From: Minisyncoccota bacterium
GTDB taxonomy: Bacteria > Patescibacteriota > Minisyncoccia > Moranbacterales > GCA-2747515
Length of the DNA: 64,000 bases
Direction: 5' to 3'
Assembly (NCBI GenBank): GCA_937936355.1
Contig: CALDDM010000002.1
Span: 17,156-81,155, forward strand
Shown: piece by piece, positions 21,587 to 64,000 of the stretch
Layout: every line of letters starts with the position of its first letter
How positions within the stretch are numbered: the stretch's first letter is position 1
Translations under genes and position numbers: made by a program
The notes under the pieces: generated by a model
What the model saw: the letters and a program-made list of their open reading frames with translations, nothing else
What the model was told of the DNA's origin: nothing
Database searches by the model: none

Positions 21587-21821
21587 AATTGTAATGAATA
21601 ATTGCTCTCCCCTTGCAAAGAAGTGCCCGAGAAACTTGAAAGATTCCCTTATTTTTTCTAGGATGTCACCTTGGACTTTTTTGATAAACGAAGCTTATTT
21701 CATTATGACTTCATATTTACAATAAGAATAGACTCAGCTAAATTCCATCGCGACTGATTTACTCGTAAAATAAAGTTTCTTTATAGTAGTCCGACAAAAC
21801 CTCGATGTCAACTCTTTTTAC

Positions 21822-22838: not shown

Positions 22839-22887
22839 AGGCAGCGCGGAAATCACACTGACTTTGGAGGCGAACTTTCTGCTCTGC

Positions 22888-23436: not shown

Positions 23437-23452
23437 TTTTAATTAGTTTTGT

Positions 23453-30151: not shown

Positions 30152-31678
30152 TTACTCAGTTTTTGTTCTATACTGAATTGCTTCCGCTATGTGTTGCTTT
30201 TGGACATGGTCTTTTCCTGCGAGATCTGCAATCGTGCGTGCTAGCTTGATGATGCGATGGTATGCTCGTGCAGAGAAGTTGAGTTTCTCAGCAGCGCTCC
30301 GCAGAAGTGCTTCACTTTCAGTATCGAGAGGTGCACAGGTCTTGATTTCGCGTGTACTCATCTGAGCGTTTGTCATCGTTGTCGTATCAGCAAAGCGAGT
30401 GCCTTGCATGTCGCGGGCGCGGTCAACGCGATCCCTAATACTCTCACTTGACTCACCGTCCTTTGCATCCTCTAATTTATTGATATGAATTCTTGGGACC
30501 TCTACATGCATGTCGATTCTGTCGAGAATTGGCCCAGATATTTTCTTGGTATATCTTGCAACTTGTGACGGAGTGCATGTACACGCTTTGTCAGGATCGG
30601 TCACAAATCCACATGGACATGGATTCATTGCCGCGATGAGAATGAAGTCTGCTGGGAAGGTGAGTGTGCCTTTTGCCCGAGAGACGGTGACAATACCATC
30701 TTCCAATGGTTGGCGGAGATTCTCTATAACGTTTCTGGGAAATTCTGCAAACTCGTCAAGAAACAGTACGCCTCTGTGTGCGAGCGATATCTCTCCAGGT
30801 CGTGGACTTGTTCCGCCACCTATGAGTGAAACACTGCTTGCGCTGTTGTGTGGTGCGCGGAATGGTCTCTGTGCAATCAACCGCCTCTCTTGACCAAGTA
30901 AGCCTGCTATGGAATATATTTTGGTGACTTCAAGCGCCTCGCTCATCGTTAGCTTTGGTAAGAGGGAGACAAATGTCTTTGCGAGGAGAGTCTTACCAGA
31001 ACCTGGTGGCCCATTAAAGAGTATGTTGTGGCCACCTGCAGCAGCAATCTCTAGGGCACGTTTAGCATGCTCATGACCTTTGACATCACGCATATCAAGT
31101 GGCGTCTCTGTGTGAGAAAATAACTCCGCAGATGTTATAGGTTTAGCTGACGTGATTTGCACCCTTCCACTCAAATGATCTGAGAGTGACAGTAGATCTT
31201 TAATGCCGGTGACCTGGATTCCTTGTACGACTGCAGCTTCGTCAATGTTTTCCTCTGGAACAAAAATTTCACTATAACCCTTTTCTTTGGCAAAAAGGGT
31301 GATGGGCAAAATCCCATTAACTGGCCTGATGATCCCATCAAGTGCCAGCTCTCCAACAAATATTTTTCCTTGCGGATTAAAGTTAAGTTGTTCGGTAGCT
31401 GCGAGAAATCCAAGTGCGATAGGCACATCATAGATCGGACTTGCTTTCGGTAGATCAGCAGGTGCTAGATTGACTGTTATGCGTCCACATTGGTGTGGTG
31501 GCTTGAAGCCACTGTTTTTTATGGCGCTACTTACACGTTCTCGAGACTCTCTTACGGCGACGTCTGGCAGTCCGACAAGTGTAAAATTATGCAAGCCACC
31601 AGAAAGCACATCTACCTCCACCTCCACTGGCGCACCAGACAATCCAATTGTAGCTGCTGAGAAGATTTTTGATGACAT
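30152..31678 (-). CDS. comM: Mg-chelatase-like AAA+ protein, ComM/YifB family
   Basis: N-terminus MSSKIFSAATIGLSGAPVEVEVDV...; Walker A GPPGSGKT; Lon-like N-domain. Confidence 0.85.
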   Translation of the reverse strand: MSSKIFSAATIGLSGAPVEVEVDVLSGGLHNFTLVGLPDVAVRESRERVSSAIKNSGFKPPHQCGRITVNLAPADLPKASPIYDVPIALGFLAATEQLNFNPQGKIFVGELALDGIIRPVNGILPITLFAKEKGYSEIFVPEENIDEAAVVQGIQVTGIKDLLSLSDHLSGRVQITSAKPITSAELFSHTETPLDMRDVKGHEHAKRALEIAAAGGHNILFNGPPGSGKTLLAKTFVSLLPKLTMSEALEVTKIYSIAGLLGQERRLIAQRPFRAPHNSASSVSLIGGGTSPRPGEISLAHRGVLFLDEFAEFPRNVIENLRQPLEDGIVTVSRAKGTLTFPADFILIAAMNPCPCGFVTDPDKACTCTPSQVARYTKKISGPILDRIDMHVEVPRIHINKLEDAKDGESSESIRDRVDRARDMQGTRFADTTTMTNAQMSTREIKTCAPLDTESEALLRSAAEKLNFSARAYHRIIKLARTIADLAGKDHVQKQHIAEAIQYRTKTE

Positions 31679-33699: not shown

Positions 33700-35535
33700 C
33701 TAGAGCGTTGATGGGGCATTAAAGATTTCTGTGTTTGTATCAGTCGGTCCCGTTTGCTGTGAGCCTTCCGCTACGTCACTTCCCTGTCCAACACCCTGGG
33801 CGGTTATCTCATCTTGATCATAGCGATCTAAAATAGTGCGCTGCGATAATTGGCTTGTTCCTATGTAAACATTTTTATCTGTGACCGTGTAGTCAATTGA
33901 GATTGATTCTGATTCTGTCATGTTCAGATACCGTACTACGTAGTCACCGTAAATGTTATCACTAAATGATCCAAGTGGAGACTTGAATGGAATCTCTGGA
34001 TAAAAGGCCTGCGCCAAGTTTGGCATTGATGGCTCTGCTGCAAGTAGCGCAGATCGCATCTCCTGTTCTTTGTCTGCCTCGATGCCTAATCCTAGGCCAA
34101 ACCGCACCTCGCCATTGTCTGGGACCGCATAGATCTTGAATGCATCACTTGCCGCATCTAGTATAGACTGGTCTAGTGCTGTCTCTGTGAGAAATACGAA
34201 TGACTCAAGTGTTATGGGATTTCCAGCTGCATCGGTAACCAAGAATTCCACTGGTAGCCGATCTTCTTGAATAGGTAGGTTCCTATTGATCTCGTCTATT
34301 TTTTGTGAGAAATCCTGTGCTGCGGTTGTGCCATCTGTGATCTCGATCGTATTTGGTAGCTCTGTACTATATTGCTTTATACTGTTCGAAGGTTTTTCTG
34401 GCTGCGTATCACCTGCTTCTTCTGGCAACTCTGTGTTTACCTGATCCTCGGTAAGATTAGTTGCCCCCTCCTCTTGTTTTTCATCTTTCTTCAGTAAATC
34501 TGCTATAAAACCTCCCTTTGTCTGCCATAGATACCACGCTAATATTGCACCACCGATCAAAAGTAATAATGTAGTAATACCTGCAATTATTTTTCCGATT
34601 TTTCTGGACGATGATTTGGCAGGGCTTGGCATTCCATCTATCTTTAACCCAGGTATATTTATGTCTTTGGAGCTTCCAATCTCAGCGCTGCGAAGTGCAT
34701 CATCTAAGGGACTAGGCTGGGACTTATTTTTTGCGGTCTTCCCAGTCTGTGGCATCTCTGAAACAAGCTTTTCAAATGCTGCGTCTGCATCCTTTTGGGA
34801 TTTTGTTCCTGCAGGTAACTGATCAGCAGCACCTTCTTTTGTAAAAAAACTTGTCTCTGGAGTGAATGATTCCTTCGGTGCTGCTTGCTGTGCAGCATTA
34901 TCCATCGTCGGTTGCTCAGGGCTCGCAAAAAATGGATTGTCTGCTTGACTGCTAGATGGTGTCATCATATCTTGCGTTTGTGTTTTGGCTCCTGGCAGAT
35001 CAGCACTTGCAAGCTTGGTGTTCTGATTGTTTGCAGCCGCGCCTGTGCGGTCTGTTTGTACGCCCATACTTACATTAGCAGCTATTTGATCTTTTGTAGC
35101 TAACTGTATTGGGTTTGCAACCTCTTGATTTGGCAATTTGCTATTGACACCCTGAGCAGATGGCTGACTTGTTGGCTGAACTGTGTTGGGTTGGGGTTGT
35201 GTTGTAGCTATGACTGGCTCTTGCACGTTCAAGAATGGACTTGCCTCTAGTTCTTGACTAGGCAGAGTACCCTTCACTGGTTGGTCAGCGGTCGCACCTA
35301 GATTGTTGACAGCCTGGGACTCTTCAACGTCTTTTTTCTTGCTTCTTCCGAAGAATCCTAACTTCTTCTCCTTGGGCTGTGTGTCCGTAGTGTGCTGATT
35401 ATTTGCCGTGCTAGATGTGGGAACAGCACCTTGCGTCAATGCTGCAATATCGTCTTGCATTGTGTGTACAAGCAGGTCGTCGCCAGACTGTTGAGCTTTC
35501 TTTTTAGGCGCCTTCTTTTTTTTAAGTCCAAACAT
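33700..35535 (-). CDS. Large low-complexity (Q/T/P/A-rich) single-pass membrane protein
   Basis: 611 aa: disordered N-terminal ~330 aa, TM helix (IIAGITTLLLLIGGAILAWYLW), globular C-terminal domain. Confidence 0.5.
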   Translation of the reverse strand: MFGLKKKKAPKKKAQQSGDDLLVHTMQDDIAALTQGAVPTSSTANNQHTTDTQPKEKKLGFFGRSKKKDVEESQAVNNLGATADQPVKGTLPSQELEASPFLNVQEPVIATTQPQPNTVQPTSQPSAQGVNSKLPNQEVANPIQLATKDQIAANVSMGVQTDRTGAAANNQNTKLASADLPGAKTQTQDMMTPSSSQADNPFFASPEQPTMDNAAQQAAPKESFTPETSFFTKEGAADQLPAGTKSQKDADAAFEKLVSEMPQTGKTAKNKSQPSPLDDALRSAEIGSSKDINIPGLKIDGMPSPAKSSSRKIGKIIAGITTLLLLIGGAILAWYLWQTKGGFIADLLKKDEKQEEGATNLTEDQVNTELPEEAGDTQPEKPSNSIKQYSTELPNTIEITDGTTAAQDFSQKIDEINRNLPIQEDRLPVEFLVTDAAGNPITLESFVFLTETALDQSILDAASDAFKIYAVPDNGEVRFGLGLGIEADKEQEMRSALLAAEPSMPNLAQAFYPEIPFKSPLGSFSDNIYGDYVVRYLNMTESESISIDYTVTDKNVYIGTSQLSQRTILDRYDQDEITAQGVGQGSDVAEGSQQTGPTDTNTEIFNAPSTL

Positions 35536-48682: not shown

Positions 48683-49651
48683 CTACTGTGTATTCGTTGA
48701 TCCTCCAAAATCTCTTTTACGTATCTCTTGGATTTTTTCACTCGCCCTTCTCTTAGAGCGATTTACCTCCCTCTCGATCGCCTTGTCTGTCGCGTCGAGG
48801 AGAGCTGGCATTGCTGCCGAATAGATTAGCTGCGCAATTGGGTGATCCCACTCTTTATCTATGAGTCTGTCATACACTTTTGACTTGTACTCCTTCAGGT
48901 CATTTAGCTTGTCTAAGGCAGGACGGACAGTGACTCCGAATTCATCTTCATCGGGTAGCACACCTTCCGCTGTGAGCGCTTTGATCTCACGTTCACTCTC
49001 TCTTTCTTGGATTGCATTGTCAAAAGCAGTTCTCGTGGCTGTCTTTATGCCTGCAGGATGGTTGTACGGATTTGCAAATACGCCAGAAAAACAAGTAAAT
49101 GATGCGCTCGTTGCCTCTCCAAATAATAGCAGCTTCCCCTCTCTCATCGTGCAGTAGTCTGCGATGTCTACACCGATGTGCTTTGCAGCATCTGATCGCG
49201 CACCAGTTACAATACCCTCTGCGGCTGCGATCCTCAACCTGCTTTCATAGTGTCCAAGAAGGCCATCAAAACCATCACCAAATCCATAGTCACCCGGCTC
49301 TCGTCCGTGCAGCACCTCAGTAAGAAATGCTTCAGCATAGGTTGATGCTTCATCTACAGGCTCCTTAAAAAGAAATGCTCTGTAGTCTTGGATAAATGTG
49401 CTTGAGCTTCCTGATCCTAAGTTACCCAGAATGAAAGTGGTGACGCTTTTTGTCGTGACAATTTCCTGCGTTGCACCTAGCAACTCTTTTATGATTGCTA
49501 GAAGCTCATTTGTGATCATCTCTAGCCCCGTGGATCCGATGTCAGAAAACCCCCAGAATGATGCTTCAACCTTCTTTGTCGGGAGGCTAATAATGAGCGC
49601 GCATATAATGCAGAGAGCGACTATCTGTATTTTTGTTTTGGATTTTTTCAT
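48683..49651 (-). CDS. Secreted hypothetical protein (322 aa)
   Basis: Signal peptide MKKSKTKIQIVALCIICALIISLP. Confidence 0.45.
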   Translation of the reverse strand: MKKSKTKIQIVALCIICALIISLPTKKVEASFWGFSDIGSTGLEMITNELLAIIKELLGATQEIVTTKSVTTFILGNLGSGSSSTFIQDYRAFLFKEPVDEASTYAEAFLTEVLHGREPGDYGFGDGFDGLLGHYESRLRIAAAEGIVTGARSDAAKHIGVDIADYCTMREGKLLLFGEATSASFTCFSGVFANPYNHPAGIKTATRTAFDNAIQERESEREIKALTAEGVLPDEDEFGVTVRPALDKLNDLKEYKSKVYDRLIDKEWDHPIAQLIYSAAMPALLDATDKAIEREVNRSKRRASEKIQEIRKRDFGGSTNTQ

Positions 49652-49662: not shown

Positions 49663-50631
49663 TTATTGTAGTGCTTTTACATCTATGCCGAATGATTCAA
49701 ATTTCTCAGTTATTTTTTTAGTCACGTCGCTGATTAGCGTCAGTGCTGCACTTGCTCTCTGTATGTGTAACATGAAGTCTAGTGGGTCGTTGGTTACGTC
49801 TATTCCTTTGCTTGTTTGTGCAAGTGATCCAATGTATTCAAATGTCTGTAGAGCTTCTATGTGCTCCTCCATTAGCGTCTCCGGGACTGCAACGTCAATG
49901 AGCTGGTCACCAGCTTCCGCCGCTGCTTCTGCAAGGTTTATAAAGTAGGATGAGTTTGTTGCGTCGCGGGAAACAATCTCAGCATTTTGGTAGATCTCCT
50001 GCATGAATTCTGTCGATGACTTCCTGCTAAATTCTGATCCAAAGCTTTGCTCAATGATGTATGTGAGTGCCGTATAATAATCAACTGCATCTTGTTGTAG
50101 CTTTTGCTCACGTTCCTGCCCTGTAAGATCCTCATAGCTCTGTGATTTTATATGCAACCTCTCTTGATCTATATCGTCAAACTGTTGACTTGGATCTGAT
50201 TCCTCAATATATTTTTGCACCTGTAAATCTAGACTTTCTTGATCAATCTCTCCAGACTCCTCGGCTGCAAGAGTAAACTCTTTCATAATGTCGGCGTATC
50301 CAGCAGAAAGATTTTTTTCGATGCCACCCCTTCCTTCCGGTATGGATTTTTCTTTCTCCTGTATGACACGGTCTCCGGGTGCTGGCTTCAGTGGATCAAA
50401 TCCTGATTCAATTTCCACGCCATCCCTGTAGCCGTCACCATCTGTGTCGGGGTTGCGTGCGTCGGTGCCAATGACTTTTTCCTCAGAATTACTGAGACCA
50501 TCCCCGTCAAAATCTTCGAAGTATGTTGTTTCACTTTGCCTGTTGTCAGCGCCAGCGTACAGAGAAACCGCACAGGTAAGCAGCACAGCAAACACTGCAA
50601 AAGGTATAATATTATGGAGGTTAAATTTCAT
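49663..50631 (-). CDS. Secreted protein with Ca-binding-like DxDxDG repeats (start at MKFNLHN)
   Basis: Signal peptide; DFDGDGLSNSEE...NPDTDGDGYRDG repeats (thrombospondin-type-3/EF-like). Confidence 0.45.
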   Translation of the reverse strand: MKFNLHNIIPFAVFAVLLTCAVSLYAGADNRQSETTYFEDFDGDGLSNSEEKVIGTDARNPDTDGDGYRDGVEIESGFDPLKPAPGDRVIQEKEKSIPEGRGGIEKNLSAGYADIMKEFTLAAEESGEIDQESLDLQVQKYIEESDPSQQFDDIDQERLHIKSQSYEDLTGQEREQKLQQDAVDYYTALTYIIEQSFGSEFSRKSSTEFMQEIYQNAEIVSRDATNSSYFINLAEAAAEAGDQLIDVAVPETLMEEHIEALQTFEYIGSLAQTSKGIDVTNDPLDFMLHIQRASAALTLISDVTKKITEKFESFGIDVKALQ

Positions 50632-50918
50632 TTTGTTTAGTGTAATTTTTTTTATTATACCACGTTCTCTTTCTTGTCGTCGACTTTTTGTAGTGCTGCA
50701 CTCTTGCCTCATCCTCATTTTTTTCTTATTATTTTTGTGTTTCTTGCATTTTTTTATTTCTAGTCCTCACTTCGTCCAGTAGAGTTTTGCGCGTTCTGCA
50801 TTCCACATTGCTGTCGCTCTAGTATTTGTCGTTATTTTTCTTGTATTTGATTTTTTGTCAAATTTGTGTTATTACGTTTTCTAAGTAGGTCGTTTGCTTC
50901 CTTTTTTCTGATTTCCTT

Positions 50919-51406
50919 GTTCACGTTCCACGTGGAACTTTTATTTTTGTGCGCTCTTGCGCAGTTTTTCTTACTGCTTTTCCCAGCGCTCTGCACCTGT
51001 TCCACGTTGAGCTATTCTGTCTCTCTGTTCTACGTGGAACTTTTTCATATCTTTGACTTTTCATGTTCTACGTGGAACATGATTTTCTCTGTTTCATCTT
51101 TCTTGCGTGAATTTTGATATTTCAACTCATTATTTATATTGTTCCATGTAGAACTAATTTTTCTTATCTGATTCTTATATTTTTCTGTTTTGAGCGGATT
51201 TGACTATGCTTCCTTGTTTTATTCTTCCGCATCATTGTTCCATGTGGAACATTTGAAACTTACTAACATATTTTTGATCACTTTTTCTGCACCATTTTAT
51301 TTACTATCCTTCACATTCTGTTCATTTCTCATTCTATGTGAAGTTACTCCTTTGTTCTACGTGGAACACTTTCTCCGCCTTTCATCTACTATGTTCTACG
51401 TGGAAC
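50919..51406. repeat. Array of at least 8 copies of the 14-bp palindrome GTTC[C/T]A[C/T]GT[G/A]GAAC (parS-like) at irregular 28-117-bp spacing
   Basis: Copies at 50925, 50999, 51037, 51065, 51141, 51237, 51354 and 51393, each usually preceded by T (TGTTC...GAAC). Confidence 0.85.
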
Positions 51407-53673: not shown

Positions 53674-53744
53674 GGTCCGTTGGCCGAGTGGTTAGGCAAG
53701 GGTCTGCAAAACCCTGTACGCCGGTTCAATTCCGGCACGGACCT
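53674..53744 (+). tRNA. tRNA-Cys (GCA)
   Basis: ggtccgt...acggacc acceptor, anticodon loop ctGCAaa, T-arm gccgg-ttcaatt-ccggc. Confidence 0.65.
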
Positions 53745-53834
53745 CACAATAAAGACGAGAGGCTCAAGCGTTGCGTGCGTATCGTTGATAGTACGTTTGC
53801 ATGCTTTAGTTTCTGGGAATTTGCAATTACACTT

Positions 53835-53919
53835 GCCGTGGTGGTGGAACTGGTAGACACGAGGGACTTAAAATCCCTTGGATGAATAATCCGTGCGGGT
53901 TCAAGTCCCGCCCGCGGCA
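53835..53919 (+). tRNA. tRNA-Leu (TAA), long variable arm
   Basis: gccgtgg...ccgcggc acceptor, anticodon loop ctTAAaa, T-arm gcggg-ttcaagt-cccgc. Confidence 0.75.
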
Positions 53920-54064
53920 CACAAAAGATATATTCTGCTTTACACATACAAGTTAGCTCCCCATATTGGAGTGTTTAGTTACCTGTAATACCCCTCACTT
54001 CAAAATAAAATCCCACTGTGTGTGGGATTTTATCTTTCTCATCCTTTACTTTTGTAACCCCTTG

Positions 54065-54766
54065 TTATTCCACAACTGATACTGGTAAATTCCTTCGCCC
54101 AAAGGCAAATGCCTCTGATTTTGTCACCACGTATATATCGAATTTATTTCCTTTGATTGCTCCACCACGATCTTCGCACGTATATGTTCCATAGCCCTCT
54201 ACTTTGATCCTTGTTCCAAACGGATAACTCCGCGGACATGCTATCGTATGATTTGCTTTCACGCGTTTTCCTGAGGCTGTGATCCCATCACCGCTATCTG
54301 TCTCATCAAATGCTGCTGTATACGCACTTATATTCGCAATAAATTGCCCACCGGATGCACTATCAGAGGATTGCCTGACTGGCGCAGTTATCTTTTTTGG
54401 CGTCGGTTTTGGCTTATCCTTTGCAGCTGCTGCGGCAAGCTGTGCAATCATTTTGGCTCGGGCAATGCGCGATTTACTCTGCTTGTCATCTAGATCACCT
54501 GCCTCATCGTTGCTCATGGCGCTTTCTACATTTTTCAGCGCAAGTTCTTGTATCAACTTACTTCTGCGTACTCTTGCTGGCGTGGTGCTTTCACCTACCC
54601 CATCAGAGAGGTCTATGTGCACGCCGCTTGCCTCAATGTCAAAGTACGCTAGTTGCTCAACCTCTTTGATCTGTCCGCCATACCAAACACTTTGCGCATT
54701 GCCCTCCAGGGGTAGCACGATCATCGATGTTATAATAGTAGCGTTGAGTATTTTGTTTTTAGTCAT
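54065..54766 (-). CDS. 3D-domain (RlpA/MltA-like double-psi beta-barrel) cell-wall-binding/lytic protein with a signal peptide
   Basis: C-terminus AAFDETDSGDGITASGKRVKANHTIACPRSYPFGTRIKVEGYGTYTCEDRGGAI.GNKFDIYV is the 3D-domain signature with three conserved Asp. Confidence 0.6.
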   Translation of the reverse strand: MTKNKILNATIITSMIVLPLEGNAQSVWYGGQIKEVEQLAYFDIEASGVHIDLSDGVGESTTPARVRRSKLIQELALKNVESAMSNDEAGDLDDKQSKSRIARAKMIAQLAAAAAKDKPKPTPKKITAPVRQSSDSASGGQFIANISAYTAAFDETDSGDGITASGKRVKANHTIACPRSYPFGTRIKVEGYGTYTCEDRGGAIKGNKFDIYVVTKSEAFAFGRRNLPVSVVE

Positions 54767-54996
54767 GACTTTAAGTTTTGTGGTTTTGTCTGCGTGCCAA
54801 AATTGCACACTCGTATCGTGATTACCATCTTCTTTGACACACAAAAAAATCGGCCACCCTTGGTCGATCTAAAACATCTCTATCAGCGCCATCACTATAA
54901 GGTACCTATAGCTATTACATAGCGCATGCGGATTTGTGCGTATTTCTACCTACAACTATTATAGCAAAAAAATTAGCTCTAGTCAATACACCTTTT

Positions 54997-55803
54997 ATGT
55001 CTCTCCAATCTCTTTTCTCTCGTTTTCGTCAACTCCATTTTATACTTCGCATCGTTATAGGACTTCTGTTTTTTGGTGTCTTTTACTTCCTCTGGCGTGA
55101 ACGCTTTGTCGTGACGCGACAGTTTCTTGCTCCAGAAGAGATGCTTTTTTCCAACACGCAACCCTGGGGCATCCTCCTTCGCCTCAAAGAATCTCAGAAG
55201 GGCTACACTAATCGCCAGTTCTCTGCCATCACCCTTTCTGCGCCACACACCAACACTGATCCGCGGACCCAGGATGAAATTGCAGATCTTCATGAACTAG
55301 TACGTTTACGCACACATGACGTTATTGCACGCATAGATCGTGAACGTTTCGATGTACGAAAGCTTACCATGGCGGACAAAACCTTGAGATCGCTACTTCG
55401 AGACGGAGCGCACCCACTGTCTGATGAATTGATTGATGCGGTGCTTTACGATTTCGATGCATATGTTTTGCATTTTAAGCGTATACATGACCGCGTTCGA
55501 CCTACAATCCTTGATCCATCTCTTCCGCATGCTTTTCCTGTGCCCAAGCATCCATCATATCCTAGCGGTCACAGCTCACAAGCTCACCTTATCGCTGAAA
55601 TCCTGAGCATCTTTCAACCTAAGCAGCGTGAGGCTTTTTTTGCAGATGCATGGCGCGTCGCTACTGACCGCGAGATTGCAGGCTTTCATTATCGCAGTGA
55701 TACTGTTGCGGGTCGGATTCTTGCACAGCAGTATTTCGCACTGCTTATGGAGTCAGATGATTTTCGTAGAGACCTCGCCGCTGCAAAGTCTGAGTGGGAG
55801 TAG
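54997..55803 (+). CDS. PAP2-superfamily phosphatase (membrane-anchored)
   Basis: Motifs RVRPT...PSGHSSQ...HYRSDTVAG (KxxxxxxRP / PSGH / SRxxxxxHxxxD). Confidence 0.65.
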   Translation: MSLQSLFSRFRQLHFILRIVIGLLFFGVFYFLWRERFVVTRQFLAPEEMLFSNTQPWGILLRLKESQKGYTNRQFSAITLSAPHTNTDPRTQDEIADLHELVRLRTHDVIARIDRERFDVRKLTMADKTLRSLLRDGAHPLSDELIDAVLYDFDAYVLHFKRIHDRVRPTILDPSLPHAFPVPKHPSYPSGHSSQAHLIAEILSIFQPKQREAFFADAWRVATDREIAGFHYRSDTVAGRILAQQYFALLMESDDFRRDLAAAKSEWE

Positions 55804-55995
55804 CTCGTGGCAGAACAAATAACATTGTCAGAGCGCGGAGTTACACACAGAGATTTCCTCATGCATAGTGTGCGCTGTGATATAATGAAGTGTGTCAAAA
55901 GTGTGCATTTTGTGCACGACGATTTCTGTATGATAGTTGTTACGGGGAAGTCATATAGGAACTGGTTGCAGTTTTTCAAAACCAAAAAACTCCCA

Positions 55996-58062
55996 ATGCT
56001 TACGAGATTATTCTCTTTACGCTCACCACGTCGACCTGCAATTATCTTTGCCTTATTTATAGTGTCACTTTTTGTGATGCCTTTTTATGGTGCCCCCGAT
56101 ATGACAATCCACACTTTAAATGCCTCAGCTAATAATACTGACCTAGATCTAGATCCCGGAACTATTAGTGATATAGTCGAGTGTAGACTGCGTGATGATG
56201 GTCCAATTATTGCCTGTCTTATAAACAAACTACTTTTCTTACCTGCTCAGCTTTTCTCTGTTGGCGTTTCTTTCGCGGTTAGCTTGCTGGATATATTCAC
56301 TGATCCAGTTCTCTACAATGCGCAATTTAAAAGTGAAGCCCTCTATGCTGGCTGGGGCGTAGTGCGCGATCTTTTTAATATTATCTTCATCTTTGCACTT
56401 CTTTTCAGCGCCTTTGCAACGATCTTCCAGATTCAGAAGTATCATTTGCGCAACATCCTCAAAAACGTTATCATCATGGCACTGCTGATCAATTTCTCGT
56501 GGCCGATTGCCCGCGTGATCATCGATTTCTCAAATATTCTCATGTTCTTCTTTTTGGGAGACGGTAATGGACTTCAGCTTGCAGCCCGAGTAAGTGAAGG
56601 AAAGGGCTTGCACAACATACTTCTTGCTGGGGCTGATATAAGACAATTCGGCTCCATGGGTAATGTGGTTTTGATAGATATATTTATGTTTATCTACATG
56701 ATCACGATGCTTACTGTTGCTTTTCAATTTATCATTAGATTGGTTGCTCTCCTCATGCTTATGGTCTTTGCGCCAATTGGCTTCGCTGGCGCTGCAATCC
56801 CCCGCATGGAAGGCCTATCTTCTAGTTGGTGGAGCGCTTTTCTTAAGTATTGCTTTGCTGGCCCAGTAATGATGTTCATGGTCGTACTTGCCAGCTTTAT
56901 AATGGTTGAAACAAATAAAGCAAATGAGGGTACGATCTTTGTAGCAACTAAAACTGGTGCCTTTGAAAATTTTCTAGGTAACGCAGTCGCCTTCACAGTA
57001 CCTATGGCGATTTTGTGGGGTGCAATCATCGCCTCCGGAAAGCTAGGCGATGCGGGCTCAAATTTTGTCACGAGCAAAGCAAAAAGCGCGCTCAGACGTG
57101 GTGGGGACTTTGTGACGCGCCCAGTGGTGGGTGTTGGGAAGGGTGCTGTGGGTAGCGCTACAGGTGTAGCTAAGAGAGCTGGACGCGCGTTTCCGGGCGT
57201 AGCAGCTGGGACTGGCATCATCAAAGGTGTTGGTAATAGCCTTGCCAAGAGCTCTGCAACGTCTAAGGCAAAGTTTGAAGCTCGCCAAGCAGCTGTTGCT
57301 GCAAACACACAACAACAAATGCCTGGTTTTGTGGGTGGAGATAGCAATGCAGTGGCAAAGTATGAGAAAACCGCCGCAATCAAGCGATCTTCGGAGTTCA
57401 AGGAGGCCGGCATAGGAGCCAAAGTTGCAGCTGACCAGTTCAAAAATGCTCAAGGCGTAGAAAAGCAAGCTCTTATGAGCTACATGACAAGCAAGGATGC
57501 TGTGAAAAGTGGGGAAGACCTACAACATGTTTTGACAGCTTTAGAGGTTGATCGAGTTAAAAGCCTGGAGGGTGTTACTGATCAAGCTTTTATAGATAAG
57601 ATAAATTCGGATTCACAAAAGAGTGCTCTCAAGTCTTTGGAGTCGATCGATGACTTTGCAGCAAGTCAGTTTAAAGAAGGCGATTATAAAAAGATAGCAT
57701 CTGCGTATAGCGGGTCTGATGAGACCGGCAAAGAGCTTTTGTCTGCGGTCAATAATAAGCTCCTTAGCAAGAATCGACTTGATCTTCAGCTCAGTCACGT
57801 AATTACTGATAAGCGTCAAGGTCCAGCGGCTGCAGCTGAAGTCGTGGAAAACCTCACGTCAACTCAACTGGCATCAAACGTGAAAGTGGCGCAGGTTCTC
57901 GAAGATAGTAAAGATGATCATTACCAAGAGACACTTGCTGTTGTCAGCGCAATCAACAATCAAGTCTTGTCTACACCAAAGTCTCGTGAGCAATTTGGCT
58001 TAAGGGCAGGAGCAAAGCAAAAAGATAAGCTCTCAAGCGTAGGCGTAAAAACTACTGTTTAG
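55996..58062 (+). CDS. VirB6/TrbL-like polytopic membrane protein of a type IV secretion-like system (the ORF is open from 55807; the signal-peptide start at 55996 is preferred)
   Basis: N-terminal signal, ~6-8 TM helices in the central region, long hydrophilic A/K/S-rich C-terminal tail, as in VirB6/ConG-type proteins; adjacent to VirB4. Confidence 0.45.
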   Translation: MLTRLFSLRSPRRPAIIFALFIVSLFVMPFYGAPDMTIHTLNASANNTDLDLDPGTISDIVECRLRDDGPIIACLINKLLFLPAQLFSVGVSFAVSLLDIFTDPVLYNAQFKSEALYAGWGVVRDLFNIIFIFALLFSAFATIFQIQKYHLRNILKNVIIMALLINFSWPIARVIIDFSNILMFFFLGDGNGLQLAARVSEGKGLHNILLAGADIRQFGSMGNVVLIDIFMFIYMITMLTVAFQFIIRLVALLMLMVFAPIGFAGAAIPRMEGLSSSWWSAFLKYCFAGPVMMFMVVLASFIMVETNKANEGTIFVATKTGAFENFLGNAVAFTVPMAILWGAIIASGKLGDAGSNFVTSKAKSALRRGGDFVTRPVVGVGKGAVGSATGVAKRAGRAFPGVAAGTGIIKGVGNSLAKSSATSKAKFEARQAAVAANTQQQMPGFVGGDSNAVAKYEKTAAIKRSSEFKEAGIGAKVAADQFKNAQGVEKQALMSYMTSKDAVKSGEDLQHVLTALEVDRVKSLEGVTDQAFIDKINSDSQKSALKSLESIDDFAASQFKEGDYKKIASAYSGSDETGKELLSAVNNKLLSKNRLDLQLSHVITDKRQGPAAAAEVVENLTSTQLASNVKVAQVLEDSKDDHYQETLAVVSAINNQVLSTPKSREQFGLRAGAKQKDKLSSVGVKTTV

Positions 58063-58079
58063 AATCAGAAATTGAAACT

Positions 58080-59483
58080 ATGGATATCAACTCACAATCA
58101 ATCTATCCACTTCTCGTACCATTGCGGGATGGGTCTGAGGACTTGCCTGCGGAGCTAGAGCTTAAGTGGGATAAGGTACGAGCGTTGCCTGAGCGCAATC
58201 GCTTGATTTTGCTCTCGGATGAAATCAAGGAGCTTATTCTGCGTTATTCCATTCAGCATAATCTGACAGAAAAACAAGCAGAGCATTTTTCGCGCTTGAT
58301 TCGCTCCTTTTTCTTTGGGGAGAACTCATCAGCTGAGACTGGCGTAGCGATTGGTGCCATTTTCCACCAAGACCAAGCTTTTGGTGTTGGCGTTTTGAAC
58401 GAAATCCAAGGCATATCTGCTATGCCAGCACCCGCCACTGCCGCACAAGCGAACACCCCCCCAACTCAAGTCATTCCATCTGAAATGCTTCCACTTGCAG
58501 AGGCGCGCGATAAGTATCCACAGTTGGGTCAACAGCTTGTCACCAAAGGTCGGATCATTGCGAAGCAGTTTGTCACACCCATGACGCCAACTGTTGCGCA
58601 CTGGATTAGTGCTTACGAGGCAATCGCAGGCGTGCAGAAGCATACTGCAATCGAGCGTGGTGAGTTTCTCTACCGATCCCAACCATGCAGAGGGCTTAGG
58701 GAGATCGATCGGACCAAGCTTGCACAGCTCCTCAAGGCACATGATGAGGGCACATCACTTAAGATCTCTACCGAAAAGGGTGGGATCATCTGGCAAAAGG
58801 ATTCAGCAGAAGCACAGAATCTCACACCTCAAAATCCGCAACCCGTAACGCCGACACCTGCGCAGAATCCTACTCCCGCTCCTACTTCAGTACAAACAAC
58901 CCAGCCAGTTATTGTCGCACCGAACCCACCAATCCAAGAGCTGCCTGCAACGCCCTCCCTTCAACAAATCCCTCAACAAACCGATTTACAACCTCACACT
59001 CAAGATTCCACACAAGCACCGCCACCGGCCCGACAGTCGCAGCAGATACCTCGCGCATCAAAGTCGCCACGCAGATCGTCTTCGCTGGAACCACAGCTTC
59101 ACTCTCTCCCAGATAGCCGCATAGAGAACGCGCAACCCGCCTCATCACCAGCACTTGGATCTGTGCGTAAGTCCCTTCCGAAACCTCAACCAATGCCGCA
59201 ACCCACTACACAGCCAACCAGTCGACCAGGCGTACAACACACAAATCAACAAGCGCCCGCAACACCGTCCCTTCAGCATTTTGCTCATCAACAGACTGGC
59301 ACCCAGCAACCATTACAGCGCGCGCAACCAAGCAAGCAGCAAAGCACGCAGCCACCTAAGAATCTTCCTACCACAGTCAACTTCAGTTCTGGTCAGACTC
59401 TTCCGACAGAAAAATCAGGTAACATGACGCCACATACTACCGACAAAAAACGCAACCCTTTTCACATTAATCCAATTGGATAA
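58080..59483 (+). CDS. Hypothetical protein with a P/Q/T-rich C-terminal low-complexity tail
   Basis: 467 aa; structured N-terminal ~250 aa then a PQ-rich repeat-like region. Confidence 0.4.
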   Translation: MDINSQSIYPLLVPLRDGSEDLPAELELKWDKVRALPERNRLILLSDEIKELILRYSIQHNLTEKQAEHFSRLIRSFFFGENSSAETGVAIGAIFHQDQAFGVGVLNEIQGISAMPAPATAAQANTPPTQVIPSEMLPLAEARDKYPQLGQQLVTKGRIIAKQFVTPMTPTVAHWISAYEAIAGVQKHTAIERGEFLYRSQPCRGLREIDRTKLAQLLKAHDEGTSLKISTEKGGIIWQKDSAEAQNLTPQNPQPVTPTPAQNPTPAPTSVQTTQPVIVAPNPPIQELPATPSLQQIPQQTDLQPHTQDSTQAPPPARQSQQIPRASKSPRRSSSLEPQLHSLPDSRIENAQPASSPALGSVRKSLPKPQPMPQPTTQPTSRPGVQHTNQQAPATPSLQHFAHQQTGTQQPLQRAQPSKQQSTQPPKNLPTTVNFSSGQTLPTEKSGNMTPHTTDKKRNPFHINPIG

Positions 59484-59540
59484 AGTGCTGAGGAAGCAAT
59501 GTATTAGCACTCTTATTACATATTATTCTATTGTTAGCTT

Positions 59541-60044
59541 ATGGAGGAGGTACCACAATTCATCAATACGCAGGACAAAATAGCGGGTCCATTTACGTGG
59601 AAGCAACTTGCATGGCTTGGGGGTGCTGGGATGATCCTTGCGCTTCTATGGCAGCTTCTTATTCGGCCAGTCTTCTTTGTCGTAGCTGTACCAATTGTTA
59701 TTATTGCCGGACTGCTGACATTCTTTCGTCCATATCAAATGTCATTTATTTCTTATCTTGGTCACTTGTTGGCCTACCTCTTCAAGCCACGTACATACCT
59801 CTGGCAACGGGAAGTCATCACACATGACGATGATGTTCAAGAGAATCAACCACAAGAAGTCCAACACTCTCAAAAGAGTGTCTCTCTTGAGGATGTGCAT
59901 GCCCTAACTGAGGCACTTGATAGTCATGGGTCTGTTCGCAACGAACGTTTGCAGGCAATTATTGCACAGAATCTTTCTCAGTCTGCGCATAAAAACAGCT
60001 TAGGTCTTGGTCGTACAAAGAAACCTGAGAACAAAGAGGCGTAG
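59541..60044 (+). CDS. Small 2-TM membrane protein, possible VirB3/ConD-like T4SS component
   Basis: Two adjacent TM helices (LAWLGGAGMILALLWQLLI; VFFVVAVPIVIIAGLLTFF) directly upstream of VirB4-like genes. Confidence 0.35.
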   Translation: MEEVPQFINTQDKIAGPFTWKQLAWLGGAGMILALLWQLLIRPVFFVVAVPIVIIAGLLTFFRPYQMSFISYLGHLLAYLFKPRTYLWQREVITHDDDVQENQPQEVQHSQKSVSLEDVHALTEALDSHGSVRNERLQAIIAQNLSQSAHKNSLGLGRTKKPENKEA

Positions 60045-60163
60045 ACTAACTGTCATTGTACGCTTCTTTTTATACACATGTCCTTTGTGTGCAAAATTTA
60101 GTACAATGTATGTAGTAGATTGAGAATGTTATATACGATTACAAATATTACTAGTGAAACATT

Positions 60164-60844
60164 ATGGAAAGTCTTGGTAGAGCGCAATCCTCCGCAAACA
60201 CACTAAACTATGTGGATATACAATCTGTAGAAGATGGTGTTGTTATACTCAAAAATGGAACCTTGCGCGCTGTCATCCTTGTCTCCTCTATCAACTTTGA
60301 TCTCAAATCTTCCGTTGAACAGGAAGCGATCATTGGAAGTTATCAGAACTTTCTCAACTCGCTTGATTTTCCTGTGCAGATTGTTGTGAGCTCTCGTAAG
60401 CTCAACATGTCATCTTATCTCTCGTTGCTGAGCTCCGCTGAAAAAGCCCAGCGCAATGAGCTCTTACGTATCCAAACGACAGAGTATCGCTCCTTTGTGA
60501 AGAATCTTGCTGACGTTACAAATATTATGAGTAAGTTTTTTTATGTCGTGGTGCCGTTTGCCCCTGTAGAGAATGCGAATGTTGGTGTCTTAAGTAAAAT
60601 TTCTAGCCTGGTTAACCCACAGGGTGCCCTCAAAGCACGTGGTGAACTCCTCGAGACGTACAAAAGCCAACTCTGGCAACGTGTTGACCATGTTGCAGCC
60701 GCGCTTGAGGGGACTGGACTGAATTTTACAGCTCTCACAACTGACGAGTTAATCGAGCTCTACTACAATGCATATAATCCATCTGTGTACTCACAATCCG
60801 GTGTAAAGGATGTCTCTCAATCAGAACTTGCAACACGCAGTTAA
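60164..60844 (+). CDS. T4SS-associated protein resembling the N-terminal domain of Gram-positive VirB4 (ConE/TcpF-type); possibly a split VirB4 N-domain
   Basis: YVDIQSVEDGVVILKNGTLRAVILVSSINFDLKSSVEQEAIIGSYQNFLNSLDFPVQI matches the start of ConE-like ATPases; combined length with the next ORF (226+604) equals a full-size VirB4. Confidence 0.4.
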   Translation: MESLGRAQSSANTLNYVDIQSVEDGVVILKNGTLRAVILVSSINFDLKSSVEQEAIIGSYQNFLNSLDFPVQIVVSSRKLNMSSYLSLLSSAEKAQRNELLRIQTTEYRSFVKNLADVTNIMSKFFYVVVPFAPVENANVGVLSKISSLVNPQGALKARGELLETYKSQLWQRVDHVAAALEGTGLNFTALTTDELIELYYNAYNPSVYSQSGVKDVSQSELATRS

Positions 60845-60893
60845 TCTCGTTCACTACAGCTTGTTGTAGAAAATATTACCAACCACATAAAAC

Positions 60894-62708
60894 ATGCTTG
60901 TGCTATTTGGAAAAAAGAAAAAAAAAGAAAGTAGTCTCGAGTCGGATATGATGCAAGATGAGAAGGTTTATCAGCAGGGCATTGCCACAGTTCGTGGCTT
61001 AATCGCTCCGAGCGCATTTCAGATTCAAGCCTCCCAGATCCAAGTGGGTGACACAGTTGCGACAACTCTCTTTGTCATTGCGTACCCACGCTACCTGAGC
61101 AATAATTGGTTTTCTCCGATTATTAACATTGACTTTCCAATGGATATAGCAATGTTTATCCATCCCGCTGATTCTGGTATCGTTCTCAAAGATCTCCGCA
61201 AACAAGCAACGCGACTAGAGTCTCAAATCTCTATGGAAGCACGAGCTGGTAAAGTACGCGACCCCAAGCTTGAGGCAGCAATTGCGAATGTTGAAAATCT
61301 TCGCAACAGTCTCCAGCAGGGGACTGAACGATTCTTTCGTTTTGGACTCTATATCACCTTGTATGCAGCTGACCAGAAAGAACTCCGCAAGCAAAAGAAT
61401 GAAATTATTACCATCCTAGAGGCACAGCTCATCTATGCAAAGTCTGCGACCCTTCGTATGGACAAAGCATTTATCTCTACCTTGCCGCTTGCAGATGATA
61501 CGCTCAATATTGGCACAAACCTTAATACTGGTCCTCTTTCTACGACATTTCCTTTTGTCAGTGCAAGCCTTTCCTCTAACGATGGGATCTTGTATGGTGT
61601 CAATCGACATAACAACAGCCTCATACTCTTTGACCGCTTCAACCTCGAGAATGCAAATATGACCGTTTTTGCAAAATCTGGAGCGGGGAAGAGTTACTTT
61701 GTCAAACTTGAGATTTTGCGTTCAATGATGTTTGGAACGAGTGTGATCGTTATTGACCCAGAGAATGAGTACAAACACCTTTGTCAGACAATTGGCGGCT
61801 CGTTTATCAATATATCGCTCGGCTCAAAGGTGCACATCAATCCATTTGAACTTCCCGATATACCAGAAGGGGAGCGACCAGAGGATGTCTTTCGCAATGC
61901 AATTGCAAACCTCATCGGACTCATGCATATCATGCTGGGATCACTTAATGCAGAAGACGATACAATCATCGAACGCGCTATACGTGAAGCCTACGCTGTG
62001 CGTGATATTTCAGAGACACGTGACTTTTCAAAAATTGCACATGAGGAATTCCCCACAATGACCGATCTCAAATCAATCCTTGAGAACATGGAGGGTGGAA
62101 ACCGCCTTGCACTACAACTAGAGAAGTACACCGAAGGTGTTTTTGCAAATTTTCTCGATCAGCCCACCAACATCATTGTTGATAATCAAATTATTGTCTT
62201 TAATATACGTGATCTCGAAGAAGAGCTCCGACCAATCGCGATGTACCTGATCCTTCAGTTTATATGGAATGAAATGCGGGTTAATATGAAAAAGCGCCTG
62301 GTCATTGTTGATGAGGCGTGGCTCATGATGCAAAATGAAGATGCTGCGTCGTTTATCTTTGGTATCGCTAAGCGTTGCCGCAAATACTACACAGGCCTCA
62401 CGACGATCACACAGGACATTTCCGATTTTCTCACGAGTCGCTATGGAAAACCAATCATCACTAATTCGTCCCTTCAACTCCTTCTTAAGCAGTCCCCAGC
62501 ATCAGTAGACCTTCTCAAAGACACTTTTTATCTGACAGACCATGAGAAGTTCCTCCTCCTTGAGAGTGGTGTAGGTGAGGGAATCTTTTTTGCTGGCCCA
62601 AAGCATGCTGCTATTAAAGTTATTGCATCCTACAGCGAGGACCAAATCATCACCTCTGACCCCAAGCAACTCCTTGCCATCAAAGAAGTTCGTGAGTCCC
62701 TTGAGTAA
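60894..62708 (+). CDS. VirB4/ConE-like type IV secretion ATPase
   Basis: YPRYLSNNWFSPII...; Walker A FAKSGAGKSYFVKLEI; Walker B LVIVDEAWLMM; 604 aa. Confidence 0.8.
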   Translation: MLVLFGKKKKKESSLESDMMQDEKVYQQGIATVRGLIAPSAFQIQASQIQVGDTVATTLFVIAYPRYLSNNWFSPIINIDFPMDIAMFIHPADSGIVLKDLRKQATRLESQISMEARAGKVRDPKLEAAIANVENLRNSLQQGTERFFRFGLYITLYAADQKELRKQKNEIITILEAQLIYAKSATLRMDKAFISTLPLADDTLNIGTNLNTGPLSTTFPFVSASLSSNDGILYGVNRHNNSLILFDRFNLENANMTVFAKSGAGKSYFVKLEILRSMMFGTSVIVIDPENEYKHLCQTIGGSFINISLGSKVHINPFELPDIPEGERPEDVFRNAIANLIGLMHIMLGSLNAEDDTIIERAIREAYAVRDISETRDFSKIAHEEFPTMTDLKSILENMEGGNRLALQLEKYTEGVFANFLDQPTNIIVDNQIIVFNIRDLEEELRPIAMYLILQFIWNEMRVNMKKRLVIVDEAWLMMQNEDAASFIFGIAKRCRKYYTGLTTITQDISDFLTSRYGKPIITNSSLQLLLKQSPASVDLLKDTFYLTDHEKFLLLESGVGEGIFFAGPKHAAIKVIASYSEDQIITSDPKQLLAIKEVRESLE

Positions 62709-62754
62709 TCCATGGAGACTTCTGCGTTTGGATCTAATACGCTAGCGTACTGAT

Positions 62755-63315
62755 ATGGCTACACCCACCGCAACAACACTTGGCAAACCACTCCGACGCA
62801 TCACATCCAGTACATCTCGCAATGCTGTACACCGCCTGCGCAAAGCAACACAAGAGCACGTCACTCGCAACCCCGTACTTGACCAAGAAATACTCGTGGC
62901 GAAACAGCACGCCAAAGATACTATACGGAATATAAAAAGCGAGTCTGATATGCCTTTTTGGATTTTGATTTTTAGCTCACTCTTTGTTACGTTTATTGGC
63001 TTTATAAGTCTTATACCTGTTGTAGGGTGGGGGTTTTATATGGTTATCAAGCTCTGTAATATGATCCTTGGAATCATGGCGATCAGCTACGCGAATCACA
63101 TGACGCATAGCAGGCTCAAGAGCCATGGTCGTTTGTTCACGCGTATTATCATTCTCTCGCTTACAATGCTCTTTGGCTTACTTTTTCCACCAGTAAATGC
63201 AATACTCTTGAATATGCCAACACTTTTGACCGAGGCTTGGATTCTTTGGAGTGCCCGCCGTCATCGCAAAGAGGCAATAGCAGAACTTGAGAAGACCCTT
63301 ACCCTCTCTGCATAG
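62755..63315 (+). CDS. Membrane hypothetical protein (T4SS-neighbourhood)
   Basis: 4 TM helices; 186 aa. Confidence 0.4.
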   Translation: MATPTATTLGKPLRRITSSTSRNAVHRLRKATQEHVTRNPVLDQEILVAKQHAKDTIRNIKSESDMPFWILIFSSLFVTFIGFISLIPVVGWGFYMVIKLCNMILGIMAISYANHMTHSRLKSHGRLFTRIIILSLTMLFGLLFPPVNAILLNMPTLLTEAWILWSARRHRKEAIAELEKTLTLSA

Positions 63316-63383
63316 AGTTCATTTACTCTCAGGATATAATGCTCTCACGCCTTGTCATGATATAATTGTGAAAAATATCCTTA

Positions 63384-64000
63384 TGCTTAACTCTCCTTCT
63401 CAGGCGGTGAGACAATATATTATTTCTCTCGCCATCCTCATTCTCTCGTTGGGTCTTTATATCCTTTTTCCTACGGAAGGTATGTTGCAGTCTATTATCG
63501 TCCTCCTGTCTTTTTTGTGTGTTCTTCCCGCTCTTTACATCCGCTTCGTTCTTCATAGAAAATGGTCTTCTTTCATACCCCCGCTTGTGCACTTTTCAGC
63601 CGGAAAAGTTGCAGCCCTTCTTGGTGCGAGTCTTTTGTGTGCAATCTGTATGATTATTATCGCTTTCTTGCCGTATAACGCAGGCTACATCGTTCAAATG
63701 CGTGATGTTTTTTCTAGTTTTCGTGGTTTTTTGCTTTATCAAGCTGTCTTTACTGTACCGCTCTTACTTGTGATTACCTTCTTCTGTGTGCGTCTCACGC
63801 ATCTCATGGATTTTGGAGGACGTGCTCATAGCATCATAGCAATCATCTTGCTTTCTGTTGTCATCCAAATTTCGACGCCGCTGCCACTTTTGAGCATAGC
63901 CCCCCTTGCGATCACTGTTCTCATACTTGCACGCTTCAAGATTTTAAATGAATACATAGTCTTTCTTGTTTTTTTTCTTGGTCTTGCCTGCTACGATGCT
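63384..64000 (+). CDS. Polytopic membrane protein, partial (runs off the window end)
   Basis: Open frame from the ATG at 63384 to the window end with 6 or more hydrophobic helices (manual translation); not in the ORF track because it has no stop. Confidence 0.35.

Follow-up and report, generated by a model that had tools for sequence, protein, structure and literature searches.

What does a conjugation-like machine do in a bacterial chromosome where no genes for DNA transfer adjoin it? The question is raised by a cluster of plus-strand genes, lettered A to H here, at the 3' end of a 64,000-nt stretch of contig CALDDM010000002.1 from a Minisyncoccota bacterium (assembly GCA_937936355.1); this whole stretch is referred to as the window. 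A first-pass annotation of the window had described the cluster as a type IV secretion system (T4SS) encoded by a co-directional run of open reading frames (ORFs), and all the ORFs that it listed are present. Genes A to G form a tight run at 55.8–64.0 kb, with intergenic gaps of 17–119 nt, and the minus-strand ORFs in this interval are short and nested within the long plus-strand ones.

The ultrasmall Patescibacteria, or candidate phyla radiation (CPR), are host-dependent and may represent a quarter of the diversity of bacteria. Few machines have proved indispensable to this way of life, and the T4SS is one of them. VirB4 has been found in 2,417 of 3,035 Patescibacteria genomes, as a clade nested in MPF-FATA (Quinonero-Coronel 2025, PMC12102498); TrsD, PrgI, VirB6 and VirB2-like genes lie near virB4 in these genomes, which hardly ever have a relaxase and encode the coupling protein at a distance (PMC12102498). 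In Southlakia epibionticum, transposon sequencing identified T4SS genes as essential for epibiotic growth (Wang 2023, PMC10633639). The function, cargo and transport direction of the Patescibacteria T4SS are described as unknown (PMC12857230, PMC11665869).

Our analysis indicates that the window cluster is very probably a chromosomal, vertically inherited Patescibacteria T4SS, derived from monoderm MPF-FATA conjugation machinery and without adjoining DNA-transfer genes. The system is of a kind already known, one described as almost universal in Patescibacteria; the locus is a clean Moraniibacteriota-type example of it and brings nothing new in kind. By sequence similarity, the genome that carries it is related to Moraniibacteriota and Paceibacteria. 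Related loci were collected by scanning one genome per species, which yielded 80 loci, mostly from Moraniibacteriota metagenome-assembled genomes (MAGs); the comparisons use 82 loci, and gene order was compared by tblastn and all-against-all clustering of the related loci. Two records recur below: L001, a public 10.6-kb Logan contig identical to the window across 9,939 nt, and L002, the closest relative with long flanks.

A true VirB4 encoded in two pieces

The identity of the cluster is carried mainly by gene E (60894–62708, plus strand), which encodes a protein of 604 aa. It matched the NCBIfam family conju_CD1110 (NF045971) with 352 bits, above the cut-off of 325 bits, over profile positions 179–729 of 752; other VirB4, TraC and TrbE models of NCBIfam also matched, below CD1110. 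Pfam matches comprised P-loop_TraG (E 7e-27), CagE_TrbE_VirB (E 4.7e-6) and AAA_10, and a comparison with solved structures recovered PDB 4AG5, the VirB4 C-terminal domain (E 1.5e-50), and TrwK (E 1e-8). The protein comprises the remainder of a VirB4 N-domain and a RecA-like C-terminal domain, in which Walker A (AKSGAGKS, residue 260) and Walker B (LVIVDE, residue 469) are both intact, as the first-pass annotation had claimed. On these profile and structure matches, E is identified as a true VirB4.

More than 8000 relatives of E are found in the databases, the best 120 of them at 65–88% identity. These closest relatives come from Patescibacteria sources, e.g., Moranbacteria/Moraniibacteriota, Paceibacterota and Parcubacteria (>100 listed proteins), and the clade placement of this VirB4 follows a similarity ranking. 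The closest VirB4 proteins from outside the CPR belong to the CD1110 family on plasmids of Bacillota and Actinomycetota, with 29–35% identity and no plasmid VirB4 above 35%; the plasmid loci in question run VirD4, VirB6, PrgI, x, VirB4 and SLT hydrolase.

The preceding gene, D (60164–60844, plus strand), ends 49 nt 5' of E and encodes a soluble protein of 226 aa, which had been described as similar to the ConE N-domain. The likeness proved sound: D matched N-terminal regions of VirB4 families in NCBIfam, namely VirB4_plasma at positions 99–233 (E 1.2e-9), TrsD/TraD (E 1e-7) and CD1110 at positions 10–104, and its precomputed Pfam annotation is PF26593, TraC-like. In BLASTP, D residues 23–130 aligned with residues 38–145 of the VirB4 of plasmid pCDC3875 (E 7e-7), and E aligned with residues 205–794 of the same 797-aa protein (E 9e-74, 30% identity). 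D and E thus tile the plasmid protein and together constitute one split VirB4, of which D is, by these alignments, the detached, TrsD-like N-terminal part. Since 78 of the 82 related loci likewise carry D as an ORF of its own, the split is ancestral and not a frameshift. Longer VirB4 homologues (769–844 aa) were considered as D–E fusions and rejected, as D fails to align with their N-terminal extensions.

The VirB3-like and putative VirB6-class membrane proteins

Gene C (59541–60044, plus strand, 167 aa) had been predicted as a small VirB3-like protein with two transmembrane (TM) helices, and the prediction held. The product matched Pfam PF12666 PrgI with 42.6 bits (cut-off 27, E 9.3e-11) and has TM helices at residues 23–41 and 44–62, followed by a hydrophilic tail of about 100 aa. 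It is conserved in 64–76 loci and is classified, on the strength of the profile match, as a PrgI-family, VirB3-like protein.

The polytopic protein A, previously called VirB6-like, is placed less directly. The mechanical ORF begins at a GTG at 55807. The gene caller places the start at 55885, for a plus-strand gene at 55885–58062 and a product of 725 aa; alignment with relatives suggests that the true start may be Met-16 of the called product, at about 55930. Seven TM helices are predicted within residues ~50–385; the C-terminal extension after them is hydrophilic and about 340 aa long, an arrangement termed 'extended VirB6'. Precomputed Pfam annotation assigns TrbL_3 (PF19590) to the identical product of L001 (1824–4001), and A weakly matched the NCBIfam CD3337/EF1877 mobilome membrane protein (E 4e-4). 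Weak matches were also obtained across the A orthologues (n = 42): 14 to CD3337/EF1877, three to TraJ, and one each to TrbL, pLS20_p028 and MMCAP2_0566. A Pfam hmmscan of 41 A orthologues gave no family at E ≤ 0.1 except for one TrbL match. An A-type gene occupies the conserved position 5' of PrgI in 64 loci. Topology, position and convergent weak matches led us to accept A as a VirB6-class protein, which is the weakest of the component calls.

Conservation of the operon and its extent

The co-directional order A-B-C-D-E-F-G-H recurs in approximately 60–80 of the 82 related loci, and the cluster is therefore not a chance pattern. By gene, the counts are 64 loci for A, 72 for B, 64–76 for C, 78–80 for D, 82 for E, 65 for the F position, 63 for the G position and 62 for H. 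Median identity to the window proteins amounts to 66% for E and 56% for D, and to 25–34% for A, B, C and H, a pattern pointing to strong purifying selection on the ATPase parts and to fast evolution of the membrane and surface parts. Between the window and L002, VirB4 is 88% identical and the flanking RbfA, DHH phosphoesterase and uracil-DNA glycosylase (UDG) are 55–72% identical. As VirB4 has diverged less than the housekeeping genes beside it, the locus is read as a vertically inherited core machine and not as a mobile element.

The first-pass annotation had closed the cluster at 63315, after two membrane proteins. The first of these, F, lies within that limit (62755–63315); the second, G, starts beyond it, at 63383, and is clipped by the window end. 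In L001, G stops at the window-equivalent position 64039 and the large gene H begins at about 64142. The cluster thus runs past 63315 and past the end of the window. In L002, H (1365 aa), two T4SS_pilin proteins (PF18895, E 2.5e-7) and a 383-aa protein lie 3' of the operon, with the pilin genes 5.7–7.8 kb downstream. Homologues of the L002 H, pilins and 383-aa protein were not found elsewhere in the 64-kb window, nor were hidden pilin or T4SS genes found in its low-GC stretches.

Two observations concern the records themselves. L007, L010, L015–L018, L020 and others are third-party MAG records titled 'uncultured Bdellovibrionales', 'Micavibrio', 'Pseudobdellovibrionaceae' or 'Fimivivens'; they carry a Patescibacteria-type operon with a VirB4 65–72% identical to that of Moraniibacteriota, and their taxonomic labels look wrong. 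The metagenome contig with P0131 ends in a mirror duplication (VirB4, followed by genes of 180 and 222 aa, and then this trio in reverse), which is probably an assembly artefact.

Unnamed conserved partners

The recurrence of B, F, G and H revises one part of the earlier description, in which the locus was a minimal T4SS module of the Firmicutes and Saccharibacteria type. The MPF-FATA affinity and the likeness to Saccharibacteria stand; the module is not minimal, as these four genes are conserved extras.

B (58080–59483, plus strand) encodes a soluble protein of 467 aa, without a TM helix and with no match in Pfam or NCBIfam. It had been described as rich in proline and glutamine, and its C-terminal half indeed consists of 19% P and 16% Q. 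A helical N-terminal domain (~23–110) precedes a conserved alpha/beta domain of about 110 aa (~134–245) and a disordered, variable P/Q-rich linker; the C-terminal end carries two short motifs, FSSxxxLPxEK and NPFxIxP, conserved in the orthologue alignment. B sits between A and PrgI in 72 loci, and distant relatives with 29–31% identity, on two metagenome contigs, are again located between an A-like gene and PrgI-TrsD-VirB4. An exhaustive HMMER search of 1.84 billion cluster representatives with the central domain retrieved 711 at E ≤ 1e-3. AlphaFold2 (AF2) modelling of the full-length protein with three sequences was unusable (predicted local distance difference test, pLDDT, 41.6), and the model of residues 1–260, from a 121-sequence alignment, reached a pLDDT of 90.6. 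A Foldseek search with this model returned no match in PDB (best E 0.74) or BFVD (best E 0.36). B belongs to a T4SS-linked family of about 700 clusters, a modestly new item, with a confidently predicted fold unmatched in PDB and BFVD.

F and G of the window are too diverged for BLAST and were placed by hidden Markov models (HMMs) of the positional families. F (plus strand, 186 aa) consists of a charged N-terminal region and two TM helices, and matched the HMM of its positional equivalent from 65 loci with E 2e-8; no consistent Pfam match was obtained among 45 members of the family. G (63383–64000, plus strand) is 218 aa long in full, as seen in L001, and is a six-TM, divergent CPBP/Rce1-like protein, matching the HMM of its positional equivalent from 63 loci with E 3.5e-17. 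In the G family, 22 of 47 members match Pfam PF02517, Rce1-like (best E 2.8e-7). What the family retains is a single motif, YE...E-x-x-x-R-G, without any conserved His, and the catalytic set EExxxR, FxxxH and HxxxN was not found. A proteolytic role of G is doubtful, given that catalytic histidines are missing throughout the family and, in the window copy, the conserved Glu and Arg as well. H, present in 62 loci at 940–1365 aa, is a large secreted protein with a C-terminal anchor.

It is conceivable, if rather doubtful, that B, F, G and H are lineage-specific T4SS subunits replacing the missing canonical parts. In that case, B could serve in the cytoplasm as an adaptor, docking on VirB4/TrsD instead of a coupling protein; alternatively, it could be a translocated substrate whose C-terminal motifs act as a secretion signal. 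Under the same assumption, G, which is CPBP-like, and the giant H would make up a module for pilin processing and host contact that is absent from other T4SS classes.

Chromosomal context and DNA-transfer genes

The cluster is embedded in an ordinary chromosome. Housekeeping products encoded in the window include RNase Y, iPGM, ClpP, trigger factor, pyrophosphatase, NusA, L19, a DsbA-like protein, UvrD, UbiA, KsgA, ComM, PNPase, GyrA, S1, Gmk, TilS, FtsH, RbfA, DHH phosphoesterase and UDG, together with nine tRNAs. The GC content of the cluster, 0.43–0.49, is like that of its flanks, with no compositional anomaly.

In agreement with the first-pass annotation, no relaxase or coupling-protein family was detected by Pfam scans of the window ORFs of at least 150 aa, a search in which about 1.3 kb after virB4 is visible. 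A clostridial VirD4 used as tblastn query matched neither the window nor any of the 82 loci, and no relaxase or coupling protein was found within 10 kb on either side of virB4 in the relatives. The earlier statement that no integrase is visible needs qualification. One recombinase, a Xer-like tyrosine recombinase at 21822–22838, is present and is the only one in the window; it lies 34 kb from the cluster, in a conserved UvrD-Xer-hydrolase housekeeping block.

Proposed function and alternative explanations

In T4SSs generally, VirB3 anchors VirB4, VirB6 forms the inner-membrane channel and VirB4 drives pilin extraction. By analogy, we propose that the VirB3-like C would tether a VirB4 hexamer made of D and E to a channel formed by the VirB6-like A in the cytoplasmic membrane, where ATP hydrolysis would power the assembly of a VirB2-like pilin, the passage of a substrate, or both. 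F, G and the C-terminally anchored H could provide the wall-crossing, host-contacting part, and a wall hydrolase would open the peptidoglycan, here possibly the product of a divergently oriented 3D-domain gene and in most relatives a LysM-CHAP enzyme. The role would be an episymbiotic interaction with the host, through protein export or the import of host molecules. As no relaxase or coupling protein is encoded nearby, conjugation is unlikely and host interaction is the most likely function, with export and import both live options. The first-pass annotation had likewise suggested a chromosomal, non-conjugative host-interaction T4SS, which agrees with the published view (PMC12102498, PMC10633639, PMC12857230).

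Several results weigh against this interpretation. For A, a direct hmmscan of Pfam-A gave no family at E ≤ 0.1, in disagreement with the precomputed TrbL_3 annotation; an hhalign comparison with the CD1112 VirB6 was not significant (E 0.057), and a profile search of PDB sequences with A matched no solved VirB6. The VirB6 call therefore stands on its seven TM helices, canonical position and weak profile matches, the Pfam scan and hhalign giving it no support. No VirB8-like protein was recognised. H and the pilins, lying outside the window, are presumably present in this genome, as judged from its relatives. In G of the window, Q, T and V replace the conserved Glu, Glu and Arg, and R replaces the following Gly. 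A promoter and terminator scan of 53.5–64 kb gave counts no better than shuffled sequence. Finally, a coupling protein or relaxase may be encoded elsewhere in the genome, outside the 64 kb covered here.

The most radical alternative would remove the cluster from the T4SSs altogether, making the ATPase a HerA/FtsK-type translocase and its neighbours unrelated membrane proteins. Pfam DUF87, the HerA central domain, does match E residues 256–321 (E 6.8e-10), and several database relatives of E are named only 'DUF87 domain-containing protein'. Because this match spans the P-loop region only, the alternative is excluded for practical purposes; over its full length, E matches VirB4 families with scores that exceed the curated cut-off, and it matches the structures 4AG5 and TrwK; D and E cover a plasmid VirB4 end to end, and the genes directly 5' of E encode TrsD and PrgI. 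Where the first-pass annotation had allowed for such an ATPase among neighbours lacking T4SS matches, profile matches to VirB4, PrgI and TrsD were thus obtained. Accepting the T4SS, one could still regard the cluster as the transfer module of an integrative and conjugative element (ICE), or as a decayed ICE remnant, with relaxase, coupling protein and integrase past the window end. Every recognisable component comes from conjugation families, the closest homologues outside the CPR sit on plasmids that are conjugative or mobilisable, and the visible stretch after VirB4 is only ~1.3 kb. This explanation is nevertheless highly improbable. An operon of the same order is found in about 80 species-level genomes amid UvrD, Xer, CCA-adding enzyme, IF-2 and KsgA, and relatives with 10 kb of downstream sequence show H, pilins or housekeeping genes next, never VirD4 or a relaxase. 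The adjacent housekeeping genes are less conserved than VirB4, composition shows no anomaly, and relaxases occur in only 103 of 3,035 genomes (PMC12102498); the borders expected of a mobile element, in the form of an adjacent integrase, variable presence or atypical composition, were not found.

A DNA-uptake machine of the competence type, like the ComB system of H. pylori or archaeal Ced, is a more serious contender, with host or environmental DNA serving as a source of nucleotides or for recombination. In its favour, no relaxase or coupling protein was found in the window, and nucleotide synthesis is presumably lacking here, as established for Patescibacteria; the T4SS has been listed as a candidate route of nucleotide acquisition (PMC11665869). 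E weakly matches NCBIfam CedB, a DNA-import family (E 3.9e-14), and the window also has, at 30152–31678, a gene for a ComM-type Mg-chelatase ATPase. We nonetheless consider this explanation unlikely. The CedB score is 52 bits against a cut-off of 700, far under the 352 bits of the VirB4 conjugation family, so the match reflects the shared P-loop fold only; CedD scored 22 bits against a cut-off of 600. ComB- or Ced-specific partner genes were not found here. In S. epibionticum, transformation needs ComEC and type IV pili (PMC10633639, PMC12857230), and since ComEC is dispensable for growth and the T4SS is essential, the essential role of the T4SS is not classical competence (PMC10633639, PMC12857230). 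The vertically inherited, host-interacting T4SS consequently remains our preferred explanation.

Cell-wall genes, rearrangement and other features of the window

Two cell-wall-related genes had been reported as flanking the cluster, and Pfam confirmed both. The minus-strand gene at 54065–54844, divergent from the operon, encodes a 3D-domain protein, putatively a peptidoglycan-cleaving enzyme (Pfam 3D, E 8.5e-11), which also matches the NCBIfam cell-wall-binding Ent and SpsC; the plus-strand gene at 54934–55803, directly 5' of A, encodes a PAP2-family membrane phosphatase (Pfam PAP2, E 4.2e-9). Their flanking position is restricted to the closest relatives. The 3D gene adjoins the T4SS only in L001 (the same sequence), L002 and L051, and only L001 and L002 have PAP2 directly 5' of A in the same orientation, so far as gene order tells, a lineage-specific association in both cases.

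Far more commonly, in 40 of 64 loci, the gene immediately 5' of A encodes a LysM-CHAP hydrolase, with the genes for a Xer recombinase and UvrD before it. An inverted counterpart of this UvrD-Xer-LysM/CHAP block is found in the window at 20465–25735, comprising a LysM-M23 peptidase (minus strand), a Xer-type recombinase (plus strand) and UvrD (minus strand), with an M23 domain in place of CHAP in the hydrolase. The inverted three-gene block at 20.5–25.7 kb indicates a rearrangement of about 35 kb, through which the operon lost its usual neighbour, the VirB1-like hydrolase. In this lineage only, the product of the divergent 3D gene may stand in for that enzyme.

A second displaced element is a minus-strand gene pair encoding a 322-aa protein (48683–49651) and a TSP3-repeat protein (49663–50718; Pfam TSP3_bac, E 9.5e-12). 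In a sister sub-lineage (L045, L059, L061, L063, L065 and L075), protein clusters 22 (TSP3) and 24 lie directly 5' of A on the same strand, and the cluster 24 HMM matches the 322-aa protein of the window (E 1.5e-14). The same pair is directly 5' of A on two metagenome contigs too. In the window it is inverted and located 5 kb from the operon, with tRNAs, rbfA, DHH phosphoesterase, UDG, 3D and PAP2 in between. From this gene order, the TSP3-repeat and 322-aa proteins are probably peripheral T4SS-associated members. The locus defines a conserved set of at least nine genes. B, F, G, H and the TSP3 pair stand out as uncharacterised partners, in which an adaptor, a substrate or host-contact parts, all missing so far, may be sought.

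Between the TSP3-repeat gene and tRNA-Arg/rbfA lies a low-GC non-coding gap of about 870 bp with seven copies of the 14-bp palindrome GTTCYAYGTRGAAC at 50925–51406 (~0.1 expected by chance, zero elsewhere in the window). Similar palindrome arrays were seen in L002 (161–421, at the same place, 5' of rbfA) and in L006 (99–873). The half-site of GTTCYAYGTRGAAC loosely resembles a DnaA box. A replication origin (oriC) at this 50.9–51.4 kb array was judged unlikely, since the GC skew keeps its sign on both sides. An operator array for some regulator is possible. The tRNA genes include a Gly-Met-Phe-Val-Leu cluster at 16695–17568 (minus strand) and a Cys-Leu cluster at 53674–53920 (plus strand), the latter just 5' of the 3D/PAP2/T4SS block and beside a strong terminator-like hairpin at 54005–54033.

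Elsewhere in the window, the minus-strand segment 11400–16500 forms an island of low GC (~0.38), made up of small ORFs whose secreted or membrane products belong to no family. Two paralogues in it (13061–13417 and 13639–14262) share the N-terminus MKNNIDSNFAIAILALVAAC. The island also encodes a DUF2200 protein (12464–12847) and a Barstar-family immunity protein (15322–15606, E 5e-12), located just downstream of an unannotated 241-aa ORF (15766–16491) that could be its toxin partner. Two further proteins without a Pfam family are a 611-aa protein rich in Q, P and T, with one TM segment in its middle (33700–35535, minus strand), and a 395-aa ORF product (18449–19636, plus strand).

Comparison with known systems

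The cluster shares features with four groups of characterised systems, to different extents. With H. pylori ComB and crenarchaeal Ced it has in common a T4SS machine without a relaxase, and these systems provide a precedent for inward transport; unlike in ComB and Ced, the CedB match stays at the P-loop level and no ComB or Ced partner families were matched. The TrsC-TrsD-TrsE arrangement of the Staphylococcus plasmids pGO1/pSK41 offers a closer parallel, as there too a small TrsD lies between a VirB3-like gene and VirB4. However, the TrsD score of D is 32 bits against a cut-off of 200, and the TrsG hydrolase, TrsK coupling protein, TrsI topoisomerase and Nes relaxase of these plasmids are absent here.

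Closer still in its backbone is the MPF-FATA CTn2/CD1110 type, represented by C. botulinum pCDC3875 (L083), which likewise runs VirB6-like, PrgI, x and VirB4, followed there by a wall hydrolase. Unlike this type, the window has no VirD4 (CD1115), relaxase or SLT-CHAP VirB1, its VirB4 is split, and B, F, G and H are extra; the window locus, moreover, appears chromosomal and vertically inherited, not mobile.

The Patescibacteria-clade T4SS, known from SEML1_0006-0019 of S. epibionticum and from Nanosynbacter lyticus TM7x, provides the best overall counterpart. The window differs from the Saccharimonadia in its Moraniibacteriota/Paceibacteria-type arrangement, in which B, F, G and H are not named in the main text of the T4SS papers, and from the usual arrangement in that a rearrangement has split the LysM-CHAP-type hydrolase from the operon. 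A further difference is that neither dnaA nor dnaN is among the window ORFs scanned. In both the window and the Patescibacteria-clade systems, TrsD- and PrgI/VirB3-like genes lie by virB4; the window gene in the VirB6 position is a putative VirB6-like one. Both are chromosomal with housekeeping surroundings, no relaxase or coupling protein is nearby, and KsgA is in the wider neighbourhood (as in PMC12102498). The likeness probably extends to VirB2-like pilin genes 3' of the operon, which are seen in the closest relative, L002.

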